From IMG/VR virus record IMGVR_UViG_3300043959_000228: DNA of 64,000 bases. One strand, 5' to 3'. Shown piece after piece: positions 9,812-59,066 of the stretch. The translations under genes were made by a program, and so were the position numbers. The DNA comes from a virus. Lineage: Duplodnaviria > Caudoviricetes. The notes below the pieces were generated by a model, which saw only the letters and a list, made by a program, of their open reading frames with translations, was not told the DNA's origin and did no database searches. Position 1 is the stretch's first letter, and each line of letters starts with the position of its first letter.

Positions 9812-11248
9812 TTAAGCGTTCGTGTAAATCATAGCTGGTGCGTCACTCGGTAGTAATCCGTGCTTGTCGTGGATAAGTTCTGTCGCTGGTTCATCGTCAT
9901 GATGATCCTCGTCATCATCATTAACCAGCGTCCATACCAGAGTATGCACATCTAATGGTACAAGGCTCATAGGACAAGTGATGCCAGCCTGCTCTGATTG
10001 ATGCTTATCATCTGGGACAGGCTTACCGTTAGGACCAATAACTGTTTGTAGAACGCCATGATCATCCCTTTCCTTCTTGGCACCCCAACCCTGTCCGGAG
10101 AGATCCCATGTCACCTCTCCATTCACCGAACGGCCTAATCTGATGATATTCCAAGGCGTTTCATCAAGATCCTCAGGCAGTGAGGCAATACTTGGAAGAG
10201 GCGGCATAGCCTTCAACCACACTTGGAGCTTATTGAAATCCCAGCCATTCTTACTGACAATACGACCATTCTTATTCACATCTCTCTGAGCTATCCATTC
10301 GACGGTGTTACCACCAATGGACTGATTAAGGTGTTTGATGAATGCGGGTATGGATTCTTGCATGAAATTCGCGTCAAAGGTAATAACCATTGATGATGGA
10401 ATATCCCTGAAATTCGAGATACGAGGCTTGATGATATGTCCACGTTTATCCTTCGGATGAATAATACTCTCAGCCTCATCAACCTTGCCAATCTCATTTG
10501 CATATACGGTTGCGTCGGCCACGGCCTGAGATTCACCCTTAGCCTCCCATCCAGTGATATTAACCATGTCTTTAATTGTAGCGCCATCGGGGATTGATCC
10601 AAAGTACTTGCGATAGAGAATCTCAATCTTATCCCAAGTCGCCTTGTTCGCATCTAAACAGGCTTTTCCTTCACGCCGCATAATCGAGGCGATGATAGTC
10701 GTCATGATGATAGGAATCAGGAAACCGACATACACATGGATCATCGATATCAAAACACTCACGATACATGATGCTAACAATCCTATCTTATAGGTGGTAT
10801 TCCATGAAGGTATTTTCTTCCCTGGATCAACTGGAAGAGGATTCTTCTCCTTCAGATGAGGATTGCAATAATCTTCATTAAACGCATCAAATCGGTATTC
10901 CTTAATGACCTTATCGTCATCATCCTTAGCCGTGACCATGGCGGCATCATTCGGATCATCGACAATATTGCCCTTAGCGTCTACAGGATTACCGTTATCG
11001 TCCTCTTTAGGAACCATGACCTTCTTTTGAAGACCGATAAGACGATCGTCTTTAAGCGCCATTCCCCAACGACTGGTAAGATCCCTCTTATGGGTTGCCG
11101 TCGTCATGAGATCATCGTATTCTCGAGCATTGCCCTTACGAGCCTTGCTCTTAATCATCGCATCCTTCAGAGCCTCTATACCCCATAACACGATAAATGG
11201 GCTGAATGCCACAATGACGCCTATAATCACTGCGATCATGATATTCAC
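9812..11248 (-). CDS. membrane-anchored FtsK/TcpA (coupling protein)-like N-terminal portion lacking the ATPase core; possible split-intein N-fragment at the C-terminus
   Basis: TM segments; IRLGRSVNGEVTWDL...CPMSLV resembles the FtsK lead-in to Walker A; followed by PLDVHTLVWTL and an acidic tail. Confidence 0.5.
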   Translation of the reverse strand: MNIMIAVIIGVIVAFSPFIVLWGIEALKDAMIKSKARKGNAREYDDLMTTATHKRDLTSRWGMALKDDRLIGLQKKVMVPKEDDNGNPVDAKGNIVDDPNDAAMVTAKDDDDKVIKEYRFDAFNEDYCNPHLKEKNPLPVDPGKKIPSWNTTYKIGLLASCIVSVLISMIHVYVGFLIPIIMTTIIASIMRREGKACLDANKATWDKIEILYRKYFGSIPDGATIKDMVNITGWEAKGESQAVADATVYANEIGKVDEAESIIHPKDKRGHIIKPRISNFRDIPSSMVITFDANFMQESIPAFIKHLNQSIGGNTVEWIAQRDVNKNGRIVSKNGWDFNKLQVWLKAMPPLPSIASLPEDLDETPWNIIRLGRSVNGEVTWDLSGQGWGAKKERDDHGVLQTVIGPNGKPVPDDKHQSEQAGITCPMSLVPLDVHTLVWTLVNDDDEDHHDDEPATELIHDKHGLLPSDAPAMIYTNA

Positions 11249-11868
11249 GACGTACCTCCAATCATTGTCCGACGGACCATGGCTGTTGCCCGTCCAATAC
11301 CTATAGATGCGTGAACACGCATACGCAATCCACTCATTGATACCAACGGATCCTCATGATGACAATAAGCATACCTACTATCATACGAGGCGTCAACGTT
11401 ATCCCCTCGAAGCCAGACATATCCATCAGGTATGCGAATAGATGTGCGATCAGTGATCGTACATCCACCAGTATACGCGTTCTCACGCTGATCAAATCCA
11501 GTATGATCTGACGAGCAACCATGCCATGACGATATGACGCCATTCCCTTCAATACACAGAATATCACCAGGAACGGCTATAACTCGCTTCACTAGGTTCT
11601 CATCGTTCGCAATCTTACCAATTGACCATGACTTCGGCCTATCAATGACCACGACATCACCTCTCTGTATGCGGTCATTACGACCAATGAGTATGTCCCC
11701 GTCCTCATACGTATCATGCATTGATGAACCAGACACCGTCCAATACGAGTATGATGTGACTATGGCGTAGCCACATCCGACGACAACAATGATAGCCAGT
11801 ATGCATGCCACAGCTATGATTCGTGACGATAGTCGATACGATCGTTGATGGGCAGCATCCACTATCAA
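11245..11868 (-). CDS. lepB: signal peptidase I (S26 family)
   Basis: N-terminal TM; VSGSSMHDT catalytic Ser, LVKRVIAVPGD catalytic Lys, GDNVDASYDSR. Confidence 0.9.
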   Translation of the reverse strand: MIVDAAHQRSYRLSSRIIAVACILAIIVVVGCGYAIVTSYSYWTVSGSSMHDTYEDGDILIGRNDRIQRGDVVVIDRPKSWSIGKIANDENLVKRVIAVPGDILCIEGNGVISSWHGCSSDHTGFDQRENAYTGGCTITDRTSIRIPDGYVWLRGDNVDASYDSRYAYCHHEDPLVSMSGLRMRVHASIGIGRATAMVRRTMIGGTS

Positions 11869-13295
11869 TCACCGACTTGATTCAAGACATTGAAACCACT
11901 AGCGCTAAGCATCTCAATATTCGTCGTCTGCATGAAGCTATTCTCTCGAAGGTGATCACCAGGAACCGATTCTAGCATTAAGTCTAGTTGATCATGGAAG
12001 GTCCTGACCAATTTGATGTTGTTCATTGATTCATCATAGAACGAAGTCATCAATTTACAATACTCATTTAATTGATCCTTGGTATCAGCAGTGATAACTA
12101 GACGATACGTACCACTCAGCCAGGGATCCTTGTTCTTGGTTACTTGAGCTTGCATCTGACGACCCTGTTGGACCTCTTCGGTTAAAGCAATGCCGGGATC
12201 GCTGCCAGCCCCCATGGCGTTATCATAGGCGTCAATGGATTGGGCAATGCCCTTCTCGATGTCCTTCTTGATCTTCTTAGCTGGTACGAGGCTAACCCAT
12301 GCTTCCACGTCGAATGGTACGGCCACCTCGGAGAAAATACTCGCGTATATCCATGGAAGCCCATACGGTACGTTCATAGAGTCCTCGGGGAATTGTTTGA
12401 ACGTTAACGTGGTCCTATATCCCGTCATCAAATCGCCATTAATTGATTGCGTGACCTTGACACAGGTAGGATCACTGGTGTCAATGATGCCTCCAATGCT
12501 CTTCATGATGTCACCCCTTCCCCAGACATCATCGTTAATATCGAGGTATGGTGTAGGCATGGCTGGATGGAAGACCTTATTGGTTATCAGGGCAATGTCC
12601 TCAGTTGTTGCTCGGAAACCATTCAACGACGATGATTTCAATGTCGTGTAAATATCCTTCTCCTGAGCCTGCGCATGTCGCAACTCTGACTCTTTAACAG
12701 ATTTATCCACAAATTGCAATGCTTGATCTAAGTATCCTGTAGCGTATCTAAGAGCATCTTTAATGCCAGCATTGAAAGGATTGACCATATCGGTATCTAA
12801 TTCATGTCGCTTACCAAGAACCACACCAAGATACACTCTCTTCTCATAGAAGACGCCATTCTCTAATAACTCTACCTGTTCATTCAAGAACCGCTGAAAA
12901 CCAGATTTACGATGATAATTCTTCGTGACTTCGAGATAGTTGCTCTCCCACTCGTCAACGTTAATAGGCGTATTCGTCACTTTAAGTTTCATATCAAGAA
13001 CCCGCTCTTGATTCTTATTCAAACCAATAATAGCAGAATTTAATCGATTCACATAAGCGACTTTTTTCTCATTCGACAGGAAATCGTAGATCGTAGTGGG
13101 GATCTCATAAAACGCCGTGACCCTATCAGCTGAGAACACGATATTACCAATGACTGACTCTGTACAAAAATCAAGAGCCTTCTTAGGCTGCCTGATACTC
13201 TGACGATTCTTCGCTATGGCCGTAGCCTCGTCAGCTGTAGATGCACGATCATCAGTATCATCGGCATCATGACTCTTCTTGGTATTCCAGAACAT
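11865..13295 (-). CDS. VirB4/TcpF-like conjugal transfer protein, N-terminal domain only
   Basis: GNIVFS...AFYEIP..YDFLS start, YRLVITADTKDQL, DQLDLMLESVPGD; ends at VGD with no Walker A or B. Confidence 0.6.
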   Translation of the reverse strand: MFWNTKKSHDADDTDDRASTADEATAIAKNRQSIRQPKKALDFCTESVIGNIVFSADRVTAFYEIPTTIYDFLSNEKKVAYVNRLNSAIIGLNKNQERVLDMKLKVTNTPINVDEWESNYLEVTKNYHRKSGFQRFLNEQVELLENGVFYEKRVYLGVVLGKRHELDTDMVNPFNAGIKDALRYATGYLDQALQFVDKSVKESELRHAQAQEKDIYTTLKSSSLNGFRATTEDIALITNKVFHPAMPTPYLDINDDVWGRGDIMKSIGGIIDTSDPTCVKVTQSINGDLMTGYRTTLTFKQFPEDSMNVPYGLPWIYASIFSEVAVPFDVEAWVSLVPAKKIKKDIEKGIAQSIDAYDNAMGAGSDPGIALTEEVQQGRQMQAQVTKNKDPWLSGTYRLVITADTKDQLNEYCKLMTSFYDESMNNIKLVRTFHDQLDLMLESVPGDHLRENSFMQTTNIEMLSASGFNVLNQVGD

Positions 13296-41863: not shown

Positions 41864-44800
41864 TTGAAAAATGAGATAGACAGTAGGAAGGTTCTGGTGA
41901 GTATCTTACAATCGTCACAGTATGTCAGACGCGCCTCCACGACACATGGAGCTGGTCGTCTTATTACGGTTAAAAAAGCCGTAGTGATGATTGTCTTATC
42001 ATTATTAGCTCTGTTCTCTGTAGGTGTATCAGCAGTTTCCATGCAAACGGCTAATGCAGCGAATCCTATAACGGATTTCTTCTGCGGTCTAAGTGGCGGA
42101 ATCGGTTTAAATACGCAATATCGAGATTTCGGTGGAGGCATTCTAGACGCCAATCAGAAAACCGATAACACTGCTAAGATGTCGATGCTAGATCTTTACG
42201 GGGATTCGCTGAATTGGACGACTTATAATGGTACGCCAAAGCCAGATAAAATACCCGGTGGCAGTGGTAACATCTTCGGTTTAGACGCTGATGTCTATCA
42301 GGCTGATCAAAATGATACGTTAGTTAAAAGTTCTGAGAAGAGCCACGCTGTTGTAAAGTGTATCACTCAGCCCTTGATTAGCATGATTGCGGGCACTATC
42401 CTTGGAACCGCTAATATGGTTTCATCGATTAGCAGTTATTTTGTGACGAAAGCCGTTGATCCTGATTTCATCTGCCAGGACGCGAATAATAGTGCGGGTG
42501 TTAGCTGCATCAATCTCTTAGCCGTCATCGGAGGAACAGGGGCCGCAGGAAGTGATGGCGGTATCATAGGCCGATTATATTCTGGATTATATCAGGGATT
42601 GATTATTCTGATATGGGCTATTGTTGGTGTATGGGTAGCCTGGACAGGATTAGCGAAGCGAAAATTAACGACAGCGCTGGGTGGCGTATTCGGCGCATTC
42701 ATCATTTTCGGAGCCGGTGTCATAGCTTTGAATAATCCGTTATTGTTAGCACAAGCGCCAATGCGTATAGGAACTACTGTGGGCGGATGTGTCGTGCAAG
42801 GCATCAATGGTGTTAACTGCATGAGTAGTAATTCCTCAGATCCCAATGGCGAACCAAGTACGAATACTGAATGTTATGTAGATGATGCGAAGAGTGTTGA
42901 TGTATCCCGATCATTAAGTCTTGTAGCTAGACAATCAACATGCTCTATTTGGAAGGCTTTCGTTCTCGAGCCGTGGTCTGTAGGCCAATTCGGTGCGTCA
43001 TACGAATCCCTGTATTATCAGCAGGGTGGCACAACCGGACAGATTTTCCAGAACAAGTATACGAAGGATGTCCTCAGTAAGAATTGGGGAGACAGTGGCT
43101 CTGACAGTTCTGCCACGTTAGGTGTATCAATGTATGCATCTGACTCTAATCCAATGAGTACTTGCTCAGCTTCGTCATCGAAGTTCACCTATAAGAATCT
43201 AGCCTTATATCAGTTGAATCTACAATCATCGCTTCATAATTGTAACGGAGCAGTAAACTCTAAGTATCATTCGACGAAACAATTGAATTATCAGAGTGGA
43301 TCTAATACCTATGCTGATTGGTATTGGATGGTTATGACGATGAACGCGACTAACGCTTCTGCCGGTAAGGGAACCGATGACATCAGTTACATGTGGAATA
43401 ATTGGACTGGTGACAATGCCTTTAGTCGTATTGGCGTAGGGTTAATCGCGCTTATTGCATCCGTTTGCGGCGCATTGATTCTGGTGTCAACATCAGTATT
43501 GGCTATCATGTACCTATTCATGAGTGTCCTTCTTATGGCCTTCGCCCCACTATTCTTCCTCATTGGTATTGTTCCTGGTCAAGGAAAGAAGATCTTCCTA
43601 GGATGGCTTGAGAAGGTTGTCTCAGCAATCTTGAAGTATTTTGCTTGTGTTCTTTGGATGATGGTTACCGTTCAATTATACGGCGCAGTTCTTGGTAATT
43701 CCTCTGGACTTGGAGGAACGCTAATTTTCGTGATCATCGTAACATTAGCCATGATGTTCTATAGGAAGGAATTCCTTGGAATGATTGGAAAGGCGAATTT
43801 CGGTGGTGTACAGTTCTCTAATAGAGTTGGAGAGGAAATCAGCAAACGGGCGAAGAAAGTCGGTCAGGTCGCTGCTCTTACAGGAGCAGGTGCTGCCGCA
43901 GGATTCGTTGCTGGTGGTGGTAATGGAGAATCGTACAAGGGTAAGAACTTTGCTGATCGTGTTAAGACATTCGGTCACAATGTTGCTGATCGTAGTGGCG
44001 CTGCTAAGAATTCTGGCGGATTCACGGCTATGCAACAATTGAAGCGTGGTAACGGCATTGTCGCCAATGGTGCTCGCTCGTATGATAAGATTATGACGAA
44101 GCGTCGAGGCGAAACTATCGCTAAGGCGAATGACGCGGCCGGAAAACTACGTAAGACCAGTGACGCCGTTCGATCTAAGAACGCTGAATTAGCTGCTGAT
44201 AGGGACACTAGAGATTTCATTAAGTCTAATCCTAATGCAACGAAGGATCAAATAGCCGCTCATCGTCAATCAGCGTTGAAGGGTTATACTGATAATCTTG
44301 AATCAGCTAAGACATCCACCGCGCAACTTGAAGCGACTAGAGCACAAGATCTCGGTGGAGCGATGATTGGCGCAAATGGACAGACAAAGCTAACAGCAGA
44401 TGGTAAGACATATACCATGACTCATCAGAGAAGAGATGACTTGTCGGATATCGCTTTGAAGGCTTATCAACAGAAAGCCACGCAACAAGCGTCCATCCTA
44501 CAGAAGGGAACGAATGGATACGATATGTCTAACGATCAAATTGGTCGTCAGTTAGGACTTGCTGGATCTGATGGATCGATGAGCACTGATAATGTTCAGG
44601 CTCTTGATGATTATCGTAAGAACTCCGAGCTTATCTCCAGTTATGATGGACGACAATTGTCGAACGAGGATCAGGCAGCCGTGAATCACGCTCGTAGGGA
44701 ATTAAGTATGAACGCCGTCACGCAGGCTCTTAATCAGCAGAATAACGCCTACATTGATCAGCAAGCATCCGCCGCAGGATATGCCGATATTCATAATATC

Positions 44801-45169
44801 AGTGACGTTAACAATGGTATATCAGCCGCTGACACGAGTATATCCGAAGCTGACACGCACTACGCTGAGGGTGTATCAGTCAATCAATCCATATCCGCAG
44901 TTGATGAACTTGATAGGCAAGCCACCATAGCTGAGAAGAATGCCTCTAGAATGAATCGTCGTAGAGATTCTGGATCAGTCCACGCGAAGGATATGAATAA
45001 CATTAACGCGTCATACGATCTTGCTAATAACATCGCGGATTATGGTGGCGGTGGAGCTAGCTTTGATGATCAGGTTATTGTTGATGAAATGGCCAATATT
45101 CGTCAGGGCGGTGGACCAGGGTTCAATAATCGTATAGATCAACATCGATATAATAGGAACAAACCGTAA
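41864..45169 (+). CDS. VirB6/TrbL-like polytopic conjugation membrane protein (paralogue 1)
   Basis: Signal peptide, two TM clusters, CSIWKAFVLEPWSVGQFG, FAPLFFLIGIVPG, long helical cytoplasmic tail; start uncertain. Confidence 0.65.
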   Translation: MKNEIDSRKVLVSILQSSQYVRRASTTHGAGRLITVKKAVVMIVLSLLALFSVGVSAVSMQTANAANPITDFFCGLSGGIGLNTQYRDFGGGILDANQKTDNTAKMSMLDLYGDSLNWTTYNGTPKPDKIPGGSGNIFGLDADVYQADQNDTLVKSSEKSHAVVKCITQPLISMIAGTILGTANMVSSISSYFVTKAVDPDFICQDANNSAGVSCINLLAVIGGTGAAGSDGGIIGRLYSGLYQGLIILIWAIVGVWVAWTGLAKRKLTTALGGVFGAFIIFGAGVIALNNPLLLAQAPMRIGTTVGGCVVQGINGVNCMSSNSSDPNGEPSTNTECYVDDAKSVDVSRSLSLVARQSTCSIWKAFVLEPWSVGQFGASYESLYYQQGGTTGQIFQNKYTKDVLSKNWGDSGSDSSATLGVSMYASDSNPMSTCSASSSKFTYKNLALYQLNLQSSLHNCNGAVNSKYHSTKQLNYQSGSNTYADWYWMVMTMNATNASAGKGTDDISYMWNNWTGDNAFSRIGVGLIALIASVCGALILVSTSVLAIMYLFMSVLLMAFAPLFFLIGIVPGQGKKIFLGWLEKVVSAILKYFACVLWMMVTVQLYGAVLGNSSGLGGTLIFVIIVTLAMMFYRKEFLGMIGKANFGGVQFSNRVGEEISKRAKKVGQVAALTGAGAAAGFVAGGGNGESYKGKNFADRVKTFGHNVADRSGAAKNSGGFTAMQQLKRGNGIVANGARSYDKIMTKRRGETIAKANDAAGKLRKTSDAVRSKNAELAADRDTRDFIKSNPNATKDQIAAHRQSALKGYTDNLESAKTSTAQLEATRAQDLGGAMIGANGQTKLTADGKTYTMTHQRRDDLSDIALKAYQQKATQQASILQKGTNGYDMSNDQIGRQLGLAGSDGSMSTDNVQALDDYRKNSELISSYDGRQLSNEDQAAVNHARRELSMNAVTQALNQQNNAYIDQQASAAGYADIHNISDVNNGISAADTSISEADTHYAEGVSVNQSISAVDELDRQATIAEKNASRMNRRRDSGSVHAKDMNNINASYDLANNIADYGGGGASFDDQVIVDEMANIRQGGGPGFNNRIDQHRYNRNKP

Positions 45170-55952: not shown

Positions 55953-58900
55953 GTGACACGATACGCGGAACGAGCAATGATCATTGGCACTCGGACTGTC
56001 GTAGGATATGATCGTAAGCTTATCTTCCGGCGAGTCCTCGCTATCATTATGCTTCTTGTAACGGTCAGTATGACGATGCTCTCCGTGGTCGCTATGCGAC
56101 AGCAGCAAGCTCACGCTGATTTCATTCAACACGTATTATGTACCTGGGGAACCGATGACGCATCAGCGTCCGAAAACGCAGACGATGATGGTGATTATAG
56201 CCCATCACCAGTTCGTATGATTTATCAGTTATCACAAACAGAGGACCTTGCTAAGTCACTCGTCTATAAAAGTGAGGTTGGAGCAGAATCGGCTCTCGGT
56301 AATGATAGCTGGCCTAATGTTCTGACGCGTAAAGATTTTGATAAGGCCACTCTTGATATTGTCAATACGTCTAATGCTACTAAAACGAAGTATACACCAT
56401 ACGATCTATACGGTTTCAGCTCCTTGAAATGGACTGGATATCAGGGTGAGTGGAATTGGATCAAAGTGTATTACTGCGGCGCTAGCGGCACGGGAGATGA
56501 TGCGAAGGACCCTGAGGACCAGAAACTCAATCTTTACTATCCAGATAGGAATAGACCTCGTGACCAATACGCCGACCGCTTCTCATCCTCTGATCCGAGA
56601 GTTCAGTTAAAGGGTGTAAACACTGCTGAAATTTATCGTAACAATTTTACGCTGAATATAGCGAATTTCATCTTCTCCATCACTAAGACCGTTGTAGCTC
56701 TGAATAATGCGTTTATCGAATTAAGTTTTAGTAATGTGGCTTCAGATATGGGATTAGATAAGGTTGCATCAAGTATCATGACTAATCTCATGAATGGCTT
56801 GTTCTTACCTATGGTTGTGTTCATGATTGCACTGACTGGATGTTACATTGCGTACAAGGCTCTATTCAAACGACAGACCACTGAGGCCCTGAAGGAGTTT
56901 GCAAAAGTACTATTATGCTTATTCCTAGGTTATCTTGTATTAGCCATGCCTACCGTTTTCGCTAATCTTGCAAATGATGTAGGCATCACCATGCAATACA
57001 TCGTTATGTCCGCTACTACTAGTACCATTAAGGGATCGTCGTCGGAAATGTGTAGCACAACCGTAACGGCGTCTACCGTTAAGAAAGATGACAGTCTATC
57101 ACTCTTCAAGAATGGTCATTTTAACACTAAGGGCATTCAGAATTGGGGCGCTAATCTAAGCAACGCTACTGGCAGGACGCTGTCATGCCAATATTGGCGT
57201 ATCTTCGCCGTTATACCTTGGTCATTAGGTCAATATGGTACTGATGTAAACAATCTGTACGCCTCTGGATATGCTGAGCAGAATGGCAAGGAGATGAATC
57301 CAAATGGAACTCAAGGCGATTGGGTCGGACTAGCGGCAGTTCCACTTGGAGATGGTCAAGTATCACATAATTGGGCTATCTATCAGATATCTGCTCAATC
57401 AAAGAATCATATTCCATCGACGATCGCTGACGCTAAGACCGGTGAGATCAAGAATGAGAACAAACTTGAGTATAAGAATGTTGATCAAGTCCAACGCAGT
57501 GGACGTATTATCGACTCGACGAATGGCGATTGGTGGAGGGTTGTTGACGCCGTATCCGGATATGACACGGTAAATCAAGATGGATCAACGAAGAGCTCAA
57601 CAACGAGTATTAATACTGCTGTAAAGAAAGCTAAGGCGGCGGTAGACGCCGGCGGACAGGGAACAGATTCTGCTAGTATGATAGCGTCAGCATATACATC
57701 AGCTGGTATTAAACTGTCATCCTCGTCAGTTGGATCATTAGCTAATGATGCTAAGACAGCTGGTTTTCATAAGATTACTGGTGCCAATTTGAATACTGGA
57801 GATGGGCTTAAACCAGGCGACATCCTTATTGGCGGTGGACAGGCCGCTATGTATTATGGATCAAAATCGACGTTATCGTCAAGTGGCACTGGTGGTCTTA
57901 GTGGATTCACCGAGGCTTGGAGAATGGGAACAGGTGGAAGCGCATCCTCCGTCAGTGGCTCTAGTTCGTCTGATGCTATAGCGTTCGCTGGTTCTGATGA
58001 TCTTCTCAGATATACGAAACTCGACGGTGCAAATCTCACCGATTATTGGAGTAATTGGATAGGCGGTAATGCGGCGAATCGTGTCAGTGTGGCTATTATG
58101 AGCCTTATTGCTCTTGTAGCGTTGATCATACCATTGTTCCTAGGAGCAACGTTAATCATACTGGCTTGTGGATCGGTCATTCTTATGGCCTTCCTTCCAG
58201 TGGTCTTATTGATGGGCTTATGGGCTGGTCCAGGTTCTCAGATTGTGAAAGAGTATATTCAGATGATTTGGTCAGTAGTGACGAAACGTATTGCCTTCGG
58301 CATGCTATACGTCATCATCCTAGTCTTAACATCGAAGATATTCAGTGGCGTTACTGGTTCGATGGATTATTTGAAGTCTATCATCCTAACACTTTTTGTG
58401 AGTTATGCTGTATACGCTAATAAGGACAAATTAGCAAGAATGTTTACTAGTGCTATGGGCGCGGTACAGAATAACACTTTAGAAAGAGTAGGTTCAAAGG
58501 CCACTGGAATGATGACCGGTGCTGGCAAATTTGCTGGTGGCGCTGTTGGTGGAGCTGCACTAGGTGCTGTCAAACGTCAGAAAATCTACGCTCAGGACGC
58601 TAATGGTGAATATAAACGCGACAAGTGGGGTAATAGAATTGTCACCGGAAAGGCTAGATATGGATCTATCAATAGTAAGGGTGAGGCTGTGCATGGAACC
58701 GTCAAGCAGATTCTCAATGGTGCTAGAAGAGGTGCTTCTGGAAGCATGAAGACCAGGACGAAGATGGGTCTGTATCAGAGTGAATTCGGTCGTCAATTAC
58801 TGCACACGAACGATCAGATTAAGTCTATCAAGAATAGGAACGCCGTGAGGAATGAATTAATCAACAGTGGCAAGACACCAGATCAAATTAATGAGGCGCT

Positions 58901-59066
58901 ACGTGAACGAATTGGTGAACCTTGCTCTATCTGTAATAATTCCTTCCTTCCGGAAGAACTTACCATGTACTCTACCCCTAACGGAAGCTATTATGTTTGT
59001 GATCAATGCGCAAGTGATTATGGTATCGGCTCTGGAGCCGATATCGAAGCAATTATTGGTATATAG
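55953..59066 (+). CDS. VirB6/TrbL-like membrane protein (paralogue 3) with inactive NlpC/P60-like insert and C-terminal CxxC..CxxC
   Basis: YTPYDLYG...WTGYQGE, CQYWRIFAVIPWSLGQYG, HNWAIYQI, FLPVVLLMGLWAG; CSIC...CDQC. Confidence 0.65.
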   Translation: MTRYAERAMIIGTRTVVGYDRKLIFRRVLAIIMLLVTVSMTMLSVVAMRQQQAHADFIQHVLCTWGTDDASASENADDDGDYSPSPVRMIYQLSQTEDLAKSLVYKSEVGAESALGNDSWPNVLTRKDFDKATLDIVNTSNATKTKYTPYDLYGFSSLKWTGYQGEWNWIKVYYCGASGTGDDAKDPEDQKLNLYYPDRNRPRDQYADRFSSSDPRVQLKGVNTAEIYRNNFTLNIANFIFSITKTVVALNNAFIELSFSNVASDMGLDKVASSIMTNLMNGLFLPMVVFMIALTGCYIAYKALFKRQTTEALKEFAKVLLCLFLGYLVLAMPTVFANLANDVGITMQYIVMSATTSTIKGSSSEMCSTTVTASTVKKDDSLSLFKNGHFNTKGIQNWGANLSNATGRTLSCQYWRIFAVIPWSLGQYGTDVNNLYASGYAEQNGKEMNPNGTQGDWVGLAAVPLGDGQVSHNWAIYQISAQSKNHIPSTIADAKTGEIKNENKLEYKNVDQVQRSGRIIDSTNGDWWRVVDAVSGYDTVNQDGSTKSSTTSINTAVKKAKAAVDAGGQGTDSASMIASAYTSAGIKLSSSSVGSLANDAKTAGFHKITGANLNTGDGLKPGDILIGGGQAAMYYGSKSTLSSSGTGGLSGFTEAWRMGTGGSASSVSGSSSSDAIAFAGSDDLLRYTKLDGANLTDYWSNWIGGNAANRVSVAIMSLIALVALIIPLFLGATLIILACGSVILMAFLPVVLLMGLWAGPGSQIVKEYIQMIWSVVTKRIAFGMLYVIILVLTSKIFSGVTGSMDYLKSIILTLFVSYAVYANKDKLARMFTSAMGAVQNNTLERVGSKATGMMTGAGKFAGGAVGGAALGAVKRQKIYAQDANGEYKRDKWGNRIVTGKARYGSINSKGEAVHGTVKQILNGARRGASGSMKTRTKMGLYQSEFGRQLLHTNDQIKSIKNRNAVRNELINSGKTPDQINEALRERIGEPCSICNNSFLPEELTMYSTPNGSYYVCDQCASDYGIGSGADIEAIIGI

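Follow-up and report, generated by a model that had tools for sequence, protein, structure and literature searches.

The 64,000-nucleotide stretch of the virus record IMGVR_UViG_3300043959_000228 (IMG/VR; Duplodnaviria, Caudoviricetes) that we analyzed, referred to here as the window, carries an open reading frame (ORF) whose product approaches the ATP-binding site of an FtsK-type DNA motor and stops before reaching it. What is this protein, and where is the remainder of the motor encoded? In an earlier reading of the DNA letters (the original prediction), the protein was said to follow an FtsK/TcpA lead-in to the strand CPMSLV, to continue into an intein block A motif at a Pro codon, and to end 48 aa later; all of these elements were present, with the Pro431 codon at 9956-9958. 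The analysis described below indicates that the ORF is most likely the first piece of a TcpA/FtsK-type conjugative DNA translocase, encoded by several distant genes of a ~490-kb plasmid-like element and joined by split inteins. With less assurance, we favor a specific form of this assembly, in which four scattered genes yield one ATPase via three mutually specific, naturally split class 3 inteins and the Walker A motif arises only after two trans-splicings. In that arrangement, the first intein would be cut after ~12 residues, leaving an N-fragment without a catalytic residue, and the second just before block B; a bridge protein would contribute an extein of only three residues, Cys-Gly-Gly, and a motor would be formed only if all loci were expressed together.

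The ORF product consists of an N-extein followed by a short N-fragment of an intein, which we designate intein a (Table 1). Residues R370, G372, G377, E378, W381, D382, and L383 of the lead-in are nearly invariant across the ORF family, and P426, M427, and L429 of the CPMSLV strand are invariant in the homologues. Block A reads Pro-Leu-Asp-Val-His-Thr, and the stop codon (9812-9814) lies 48 residues past Pro1 of intein a. Two features of known intein classes are seen here: residue 1 is not a nucleophile and is followed by a block A of the form x-L-x-x-x-T, as in class 3 inteins, and the N-fragment has a 12-residue core that ends within the first Hint strands, with the gene stop following, as in atypically split inteins. 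No Walker A motif was found in the 478-aa protein, and Pfam and NCBIfam searches with the ORF alone revealed neither Walker B nor the C-terminal ATQRP region of a PF01580 motor. The protein is a piece of an FtsK/SpoIIIE-TcpA family member and not itself a member. In an AlphaFold2 (AF2) model, residues 414-478 were disordered, with a predicted local distance difference test score (pLDDT) below 50 in the tail. The best structural match of residues 202-352 was TcpA of plasmid pCW3, a weak match (Z 5.8, root-mean-square deviation (rmsd) 4.0, 81 residues aligned; VIA-align) that ties with unrelated ferredoxin-like folds, so that the modelled likeness of the ORF alone to TcpA is suggestive only. An insertion of ~41 residues (384-424; 9977-10099), modelled with low confidence, separates WDLSGQG from CPMSLV; it is a subfamily trait, and contiguous relatives do not have it.

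A search of 5.8 billion proteins identified 19 relatives of the ORF (467-535 residues) on contigs up to 491,046, 419,707, and 349,703 bp in length, and an exhaustive HMMER search added five further homologues (389-486 residues). All of them end alike, with the strand P-M-x-L-V/I followed by P-L-x-x-x-T. The conservation of this motif had been named as a test of the split-intein proposal, and its P, L, and T proved invariant in 24/24 homologues at 35-60% identity; block A position 8 is V or I, and 23 of the 24 have W, F, or Y at position 9. The same comparison disposes of the concern that the truncation might be a strain-specific lesion, as it is shared family-wide by the 24 homologues. Beyond the motif the sequences cannot be aligned (7-93 residues in the homologues), and the whole N-fragment, core and tail together, spans 19-105 residues from Pro1 to the stop across the family. 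Over its first 15 residues, the tail has a net charge of -9 in the ORF and a negative charge in 19 of 23 homologues. Searches with the ORF by tblastn and megablast against phage and plasmid collections gave no match, and no relatives were found among 185,579 GTDB genomes.

Two contiguous relatives, P0145 (859 aa) and P0146 (1106 aa), disclosed what the truncated end corresponds to. In these full-length proteins, a homologous N-part with its membrane segment and lead-in is followed by an intein in cis and then by a complete FtsK_SpoIIIE motor (PF01580, E 2.8e-15); the homology with the ORF covers residues 81-332 of P0145. The best match of the contiguous ATPase in the PDB was TcpA of pCW3 (E 6e-15; Foldseek E 1.7e-7). 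The insert follows the strand TPMSLI, starts with PLSVSTMIW, and ends with THN, after which the protein reads CGSTGGGKS. Block A of the ORF, PLDVHTLVWTLV, aligns with PLSVSTMIWVKE of the cis intein, Pro431 being aligned with the proline at P0145 residue 333. When P0145 was folded with AF2 from a 28-sequence alignment, the block-mean pLDDT of the insert was mostly 75-91, falling to 62-70 in 3 of 19 ten-residue blocks. In structural superposition, residues 333-520 of this model fitted two class 3 inteins best: MchDnaB-1, over its residues 1-146 (Z 18.5, rmsd 1.9 Å, 131/131 aligned), and DnaB of Mycobacterium smegmatis (Msm; Z 18.3, rmsd 1.4). Dozens of other inteins matched at Z 12-17. A Hint fold beginning at residue 1 was thus obtained in the model of the contiguous relative, not in the split pair. 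Because P0145 residue 333 both aligns with Pro431 and starts the modelled Hint fold, the last conserved residues of the ORF are, according to this model, the homologues of the first 12 residues of a Hint fold that is inserted directly ahead of Walker A. The cis intein of P0146 also has a ~250-residue low-complexity insertion, rich in Ser, Thr, Asn, and Ala, between blocks F and G, a region of only ~15-35 residues in P0145, P0147, and P0148.

These data bear on the idea that the ORF is a decayed remnant or a stand-alone membrane protein with a C-terminal motif unrelated to inteins, for which one could cite the lack of any family match to the ORF alone and the modelled disorder of its last 65 residues. 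We consider this highly improbable, as an intact reading frame of conserved length is shared by 24 homologues, whose contigs reach 491 kb, the motif matches residues 1-12 of the modelled Hint fold position by position in contiguous relatives, and matching partner pieces co-occur on the 491,046-, 419,707-, and 349,703-bp contigs.

The layout of the partner pieces was established in the complete relative G001 (IMG/VR UViG_3300044557_000292; 419,707 bp, terminal repeats, CheckV 100%), whose N-piece is 60% identical to the ORF. A PF01580 search located a middle piece at ~100.9-101.8 kb. Its first segment is an intein C-part with block B (H-x-W) at the start, block F (V-R-C-I), and a terminal THN; TGGGKS and Walker B come next, and an intein N-part (Hint match in Pfam, E 3e-4) closes the ORF. 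A C-piece at ~91.6-92.7 kb consists of a 46-residue intein C-part (I-Y-C-I ... THN), a Ser, and the ATQRP-containing end of the motor. The middle piece begins only at block B, and joining it directly to the N-piece would omit ~45 residues present in all cis forms, as well as the first Gly of Walker A. For this reason, we built a hidden Markov model (HMM) of the missing intein segment, from block A to block B, and searched all six frames of G001. A single frame matched (104,779-105,681, minus strand; E 2.5e-12), the sole match in the genome. The protein encoded there, the bridge, reads from the second hairpin strand of intein a to its THN, then Cys-Gly-Gly, then a new block A (PLTLDT) and the first half of a further intein, a'; it is almost entirely intein sequence, and Cys-Gly-Gly is its sole extein. 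Since the bridge adds to the N-, middle, and C-pieces, the motor of G001 is encoded in four genes, at ~208.6, 105, 101, and 92 kb, with three split inteins (a, a', and b) between them. The predicted ligated P-loop, ...PMSLI-CGG-TGGGKS, is a canonical Walker A motif.

Residue 1 of the three G001 inteins is Pro, Pro, and Ala, none of them a nucleophile, and all three inteins carry Trp at B:12, Cys at F:4, and Thr at G:5, the triplet that defines class 3 (PMC2807308, PMC7891396). The class 3 assignment suggested for the ORF is thereby borne out in the partners of its relatives, and the Pro1 start is that of the prototype class 3 intein, MP-Be DnaB, which splices (PMC2807308). When all six frames were scanned for the class 3 C-part motif, the window gave no match and G001 only the a' and b C-parts of the motor gene; the pattern permits too short a spacing to detect the intein a C-part of the bridge, which was found by HMM instead. 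Two other layouts were rejected for G001. A middle piece of the type found there (P0022 type) is not the direct partner of the N-piece, as it starts at block B and would give a product without the first Gly of Walker A. A single intein in three pieces was likewise discarded because the cis forms read THN/CGS directly before TGGGKS (a slash marks the junction), so that G001 has two adjacent inteins separated by CGG. The idea of a motor in two parts with a distant partner is accordingly right with regard to the existence of distant partner genes, and must be extended to four genes and three split inteins in G001.

Two further G001 genes lie beside the pieces. Between the bridge and the middle piece, 101,921-104,776 (+) (L018:1921-4776) encodes a 952-aa protein with seven DUF4379 treble-clef zinc fingers, and 93,365-94,084 (+) (L017:13365-14084), adjoining the C-piece, encodes a DUF559-like (Vsr-type endonuclease) protein. 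These may be free-standing homing endonucleases, as in fractured genes.

Other relatives show the same junctions in different arrangements. On the 349,703-bp contig, P0024 has a Hint part without block A that ends THN/C, with CGGTGSGKS directly after it, and the contig also carries an N-piece (P0003) and a C-piece (P0152). The partner originally envisaged, a Hint part lacking block A in front of the ATPase, exists exactly in P0024; in G001 its place is taken by the bridge with its three-residue extein. In P0147 and P0148, an intein a in cis is followed by CGS and the N-part of a'. P0112 combines an a' C-part with an uninterrupted ATPase and P0126 has intein b in cis; the existence of these intein-free and cis forms fixes the junctions of intein b. 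In a related group of ~58 middle pieces (P0057-P0139), proteins of 253-276 aa from contigs as long as 727 kb, the first 39-52 residues are a class 3-like intein C-part that closes with [ST]HN/S. Its +1 Ser is the Ser of Walker A GKS, marking another insertion site, between GK and S, a few residues downstream.

Residues expected for splicing chemistry are conserved in each set of fragments. The triplet and the block B His are present in six of six intein a C-parts (the G001 bridge, P0024, and the cis forms P0145-P0148), and all six read THN/C. Among the a' C-fragments, HN/T occurs in 61/61 and H-x-W in 58/61. The b C-fragments all have the block F Cys (94/94), and all end in His-Asn with a +1 residue of Ser or Thr (94/94).

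Does this conservation reflect ligation, or could the intein fragments act as docking modules only, the pieces assembling non-covalently with no peptide bonds formed? The original prediction had itself raised such non-covalent pairing as an option. Several points weigh against trans-splicing, and some of them would suit docking. Block G position 5 is Ser or Ala, not Thr, in some a' fragments, and the case for splicing is built throughout from sequence and models. A VirB4-like ATPase of the same system, described below, is divided between two genes without any intein, which would likewise be consistent with docking. Furthermore, the intein a C-part is known from only six sequences, all from relatives; Pfam, PHROG, and NCBIfam contain no family that matches the ORF alone; a Foldseek search with its own model gave nothing significant, the TcpA match being weak, and its family profile had no match among PDB sequences. 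For the present genome, the sequence read was the 64-kb window, and the bridge gene is predicted from relatives. On the other hand, a P-loop made of three non-covalent chains, one of which gives three residues, is hard to imagine binding nucleotide, and the residues kept across families at 40-50% identity are those required for chemistry only: the block F Cys, the block B His and Trp, the terminal His-Asn, and the +1 Cys, Thr, or Ser. We therefore regard docking without ligation as unlikely and retain trans-splicing as the preferred explanation.

For the genome of the ORF, partner pieces were sought within the window by tblastn with the three pieces and with the HMM of the intein middle segment; none was found, as the original prediction had also stated. 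The database entry of the ORF (P0001) is on a contig of 491,046 bp, and a contig of this same length carries a middle piece (P0022, 67% identical to that of G001) and a C-piece (P0153, 70% identical). All 59 index words of P0153 (59/59) recur in this genome, in a segment lying 45.8 kb past the end of the window. P0022 matched positions 47-137 of the PF01580 model (E 1.1e-7) and P0153 positions 192-219, so that the motor motifs absent from the ORF are carried by these two pieces; the P0153 junction reads THN/S. P0022 is of the a' type, beginning at block B and reading THN/TGGGKS, so a bridge gene is expected in this genome as well. A separate gene with the remaining Hint fold and a C-extein was found in G001 (the bridge) and on the 349,703-bp contig (P0024), and the direct partner of the ORF is probably a bridge protein, as in its closest complete relative. 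A metagenome scan with the bridge protein, which did not cover the 491,046-bp contig, gave only a weak match on an unrelated contig.

An alternative for this genome is that the N-fragment pairs directly with P0022, which would give two inteins, three genes, no bridge, and an intein of ~100 residues. P0022 does start right at block B, and the bridge gene of this genome is a prediction from homology; both points would be compatible with direct pairing. However, the closest complete relative has the same N-piece and a P0022-type piece together with a bridge gene. The product of direct pairing would be without the Cys-Gly-Gly of Walker A, and its Hint fold would be without ~45 residues of every cis form. 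In addition, block A position 9 is Trp in the ORF, as in intein a, whereas the a' N-fragments have Pro. Direct pairing is thus very unlikely, and the four-gene assembly with a bridge remains preferred.

The established class 3 pathway (PMC2807308) suggests how that assembly would proceed. The ORF product would provide the motor as far as the strand that leads into the P-loop, including its membrane anchor, and would end with residues 1-12 of class 3 intein a, Pro first, and a mostly acidic, disordered tail. The remainder of intein a, comprising the second hairpin strand, the block B His and Trp, the block F Cys nucleophile, and the block G THN, would reside on another protein. The short N-fragment would dock as the missing first Hint strand and complete the fold of the C-part, the block F Cys would attack the Val430-Pro431 bond, the N-extein would be transferred to the +1 Cys of the bridge, and Asn cyclization would free the intein. 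By homology with G001, the acceptor would be a bridge composed of the intein a C-part, Cys-Gly-Gly, and the a' N-part. Two further trans-splicings would add the segment from Walker A to Walker B (P0022) and then the C-part of the ATPase (P0153), a P-loop of ...PMSLV-CGG-TGGGKS being formed only through splicing. The C-parts of intein a start at the second hairpin strand, and their N-termini are basic, with net charges of +2 and +4 over 20 residues (n=2). An acidic tail facing such basic ends would suit electrostatic capture, although with two sequences this is only a hint.

Table 1. Positions of the ORF, its segments, and its operon in the window, and of the bridge gene in G001.
Feature	Coordinates	Strand	Description
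Piece 1 of fractured TcpA/FtsK-like coupling ATPase (putative)	9812..11248	-	478 aa; N-extein + short intein N-fragment
N-extein, residues 1-430	9959..11248	-	N-terminal hydrophobic helices, alpha/beta domain, FtsK-type lead-in; AF2 model
Lead-in motif IRLGRSVNGEVTWDL, residues 369-383	10100..10144	-	Nearly invariant in family
CPMSLV, residues 425-430 (N-extein -6 to -1)	9959..9976	-	Strand before Walker A
Intein a N-fragment core, block A PLDVHTLVWTLV, residues 431-442	9923..9958	-	Pro431 = intein residue 1
Variable acidic tail of N-fragment, residues 443-478 (36 residues)	9815..9922	-	Not conserved
Signal peptidase I (S26)	11245..11868	-	PF10502 E 2.7e-22; TIGR02227; stop overlaps ORF start
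N-terminal half of VirB4/TcpF-like ATPase, first operon gene	11865..13295	-	NF052333 positions 9-428/813, E 1e-11
G001 bridge protein gene	104,779-105,636 (L018:4779-5636)	-	HMM match + reading

The ORF is the third and last gene of a three-gene minus-strand operon, which begins with the N-terminal half of a VirB4/TcpF-like ATPase (Table 1). This half terminates in ...NQVGD and is split from its ATPase half without an intein. In G001, the C-half is a separate 407-aa gene (L010:1462-2685, minus strand) with its own Met start and no Hint part, ~15 kb from the N-half and on the opposite strand. The VirB4-like half-gene was considered as a further intein-split gene and rejected on account of this independent start and the lack of a Hint part. 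Other genes in the window encode VirB6-like mobilome membrane proteins, a CHAP/lysozyme protein, RecA, DnaG, RecG, PhoH, and a class A penicillin-binding protein. The TcpF/VirB4-like ATPase, the VirB6-like membrane proteins, and the CHAP lysozyme form a gene context of the Gram-positive type IV secretion system type. The 450-position model of the CD3337/EF1877 mobilome membrane protein is matched in separate halves by two large proteins, one encoded at 41864-45169 (+) (positions 290-437) and the other at 55953-59066 (+) (positions 50-251); they may represent another component of the secretion system in separate genes. An assignment of the element to the 'Inocles' was rejected on base composition, Inocles having 24-32% G+C and the window 44%.

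If the assembly is as proposed, the N-fragment would be a short peptide without a catalytic residue or cysteine, attractive for semisynthetic protein labelling, and three split inteins in series would provide a ready set of presumably orthogonal ligation pairs and a natural precedent for multi-piece protein assembly. A motor made only when distant loci are co-expressed could be a control point for a giant conjugative element. Such a regulatory role is possible, and its use as a conjugation switch is speculation; selfish intein invasion and gene fracture explain the layout equally well, and the fractured motor may simply be a trace of intein and endonuclease invasions. There is also a consequence for annotation. 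The pieces are now listed as 'hypothetical proteins', and the ATPase pieces resemble broken FtsK genes. What the ORF locus contributes is the N-terminal piece and, by way of G001, the bridge.

Among known inteins, a close counterpart is that of AceL NrdHF (PDB 6zgq), which Hoffmann et al. (2020, PMC7891396) reported to be the first class 3 intein found naturally split. According to that study, it was one metagenomic case with a canonical cut, and no split form was present among 1701 class 3 inteins in nr. Like the inteins described here, AceL NrdHF is naturally split, has a non-nucleophilic residue 1 and a block F Cys, and comes from a gene in pieces on uncultured mobile DNA, and the P0145 intein model matches 6zgq at Z 14.4. 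In contrast, its split is canonical (98 + 48 aa), Met replaces Trp in its triplet, two conserved His are missing, and its halves are neighbors, flanking a homing endonuclease gene. The motor inteins have the standard Trp/Cys/Thr triplet, intein a is cut after ~12 residues, and three split inteins serve one protein, with pieces ~100 kb apart in G001.

The position of the cut recalls natural atypically split inteins, whose N-fragments have 15-37 residues, including the S1-site cuts of VidaL (16 aa) and PolB16 (15 aa) (PMC13014065). These share a very short N-fragment ending after the first Hint strands, with all later blocks on the C-fragment, and the VidaL structure matches the intein model of the cis relative at Z 14.9. 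VidaL and PolB16 are described as cysteine-dependent and cysteine-less, respectively, with class 3 unmentioned (PMC13014065). Here, residue 1 is Pro and the nucleophile would be on the C-fragment, leaving the N-fragment without a catalytic residue, and the N-fragment has a ~12-residue conserved core followed by a variable tail. With regard to the class itself, the DnaB inteins of mycobacteriophage Bethlehem (Tori et al. 2010, PMC2807308), MchDnaB-1, and Msm (6riy, 6bs8) also have Pro1, the Trp/Cys/Thr triplet, and a P-loop ATPase host, and MchDnaB-1 and Msm DnaB are the best structural matches of the intein of the cis relative (Z 18.3-18.5); unlike intein a of the ORF, all three are contiguous and splice in cis. 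The Cys at +1 of intein a has a parallel in Bvi IcmO, singled out as the only triplet-bearing intein without an N-terminal nucleophile to have Cys at that position (PMC2807308).

The gene layout can be compared with that of fractured genes in marine phages (Dassa et al. 2009, PMC2677866), where a gene is broken at an intein and each half carries an intein fragment. The DUF559-like gene near the pieces in G001 adds to the likeness. The marine examples, as described in the text searched, differ in having one split intein per locus, with a homing endonuclease gene between adjacent halves, and a single gene with several split inteins is not mentioned there. Nor did our literature search turn up any paper that connects split inteins with FtsK or coupling proteins, or any on several split inteins in one natural gene. 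Judged from the sequences, a class 3 intein split after ~12 residues and a set of three split inteins building one P-loop would be new variants. As for the motor, the assembled ATPase is matched best, in both sequence and fold, by TcpA of Clostridium perfringens pCW3 (PDB 6o1w-6o1z). The solved TcpA constructs (348-360 residues) are single chains without an intein-like segment, whereas the ATPase described here is distributed over three or four genes.

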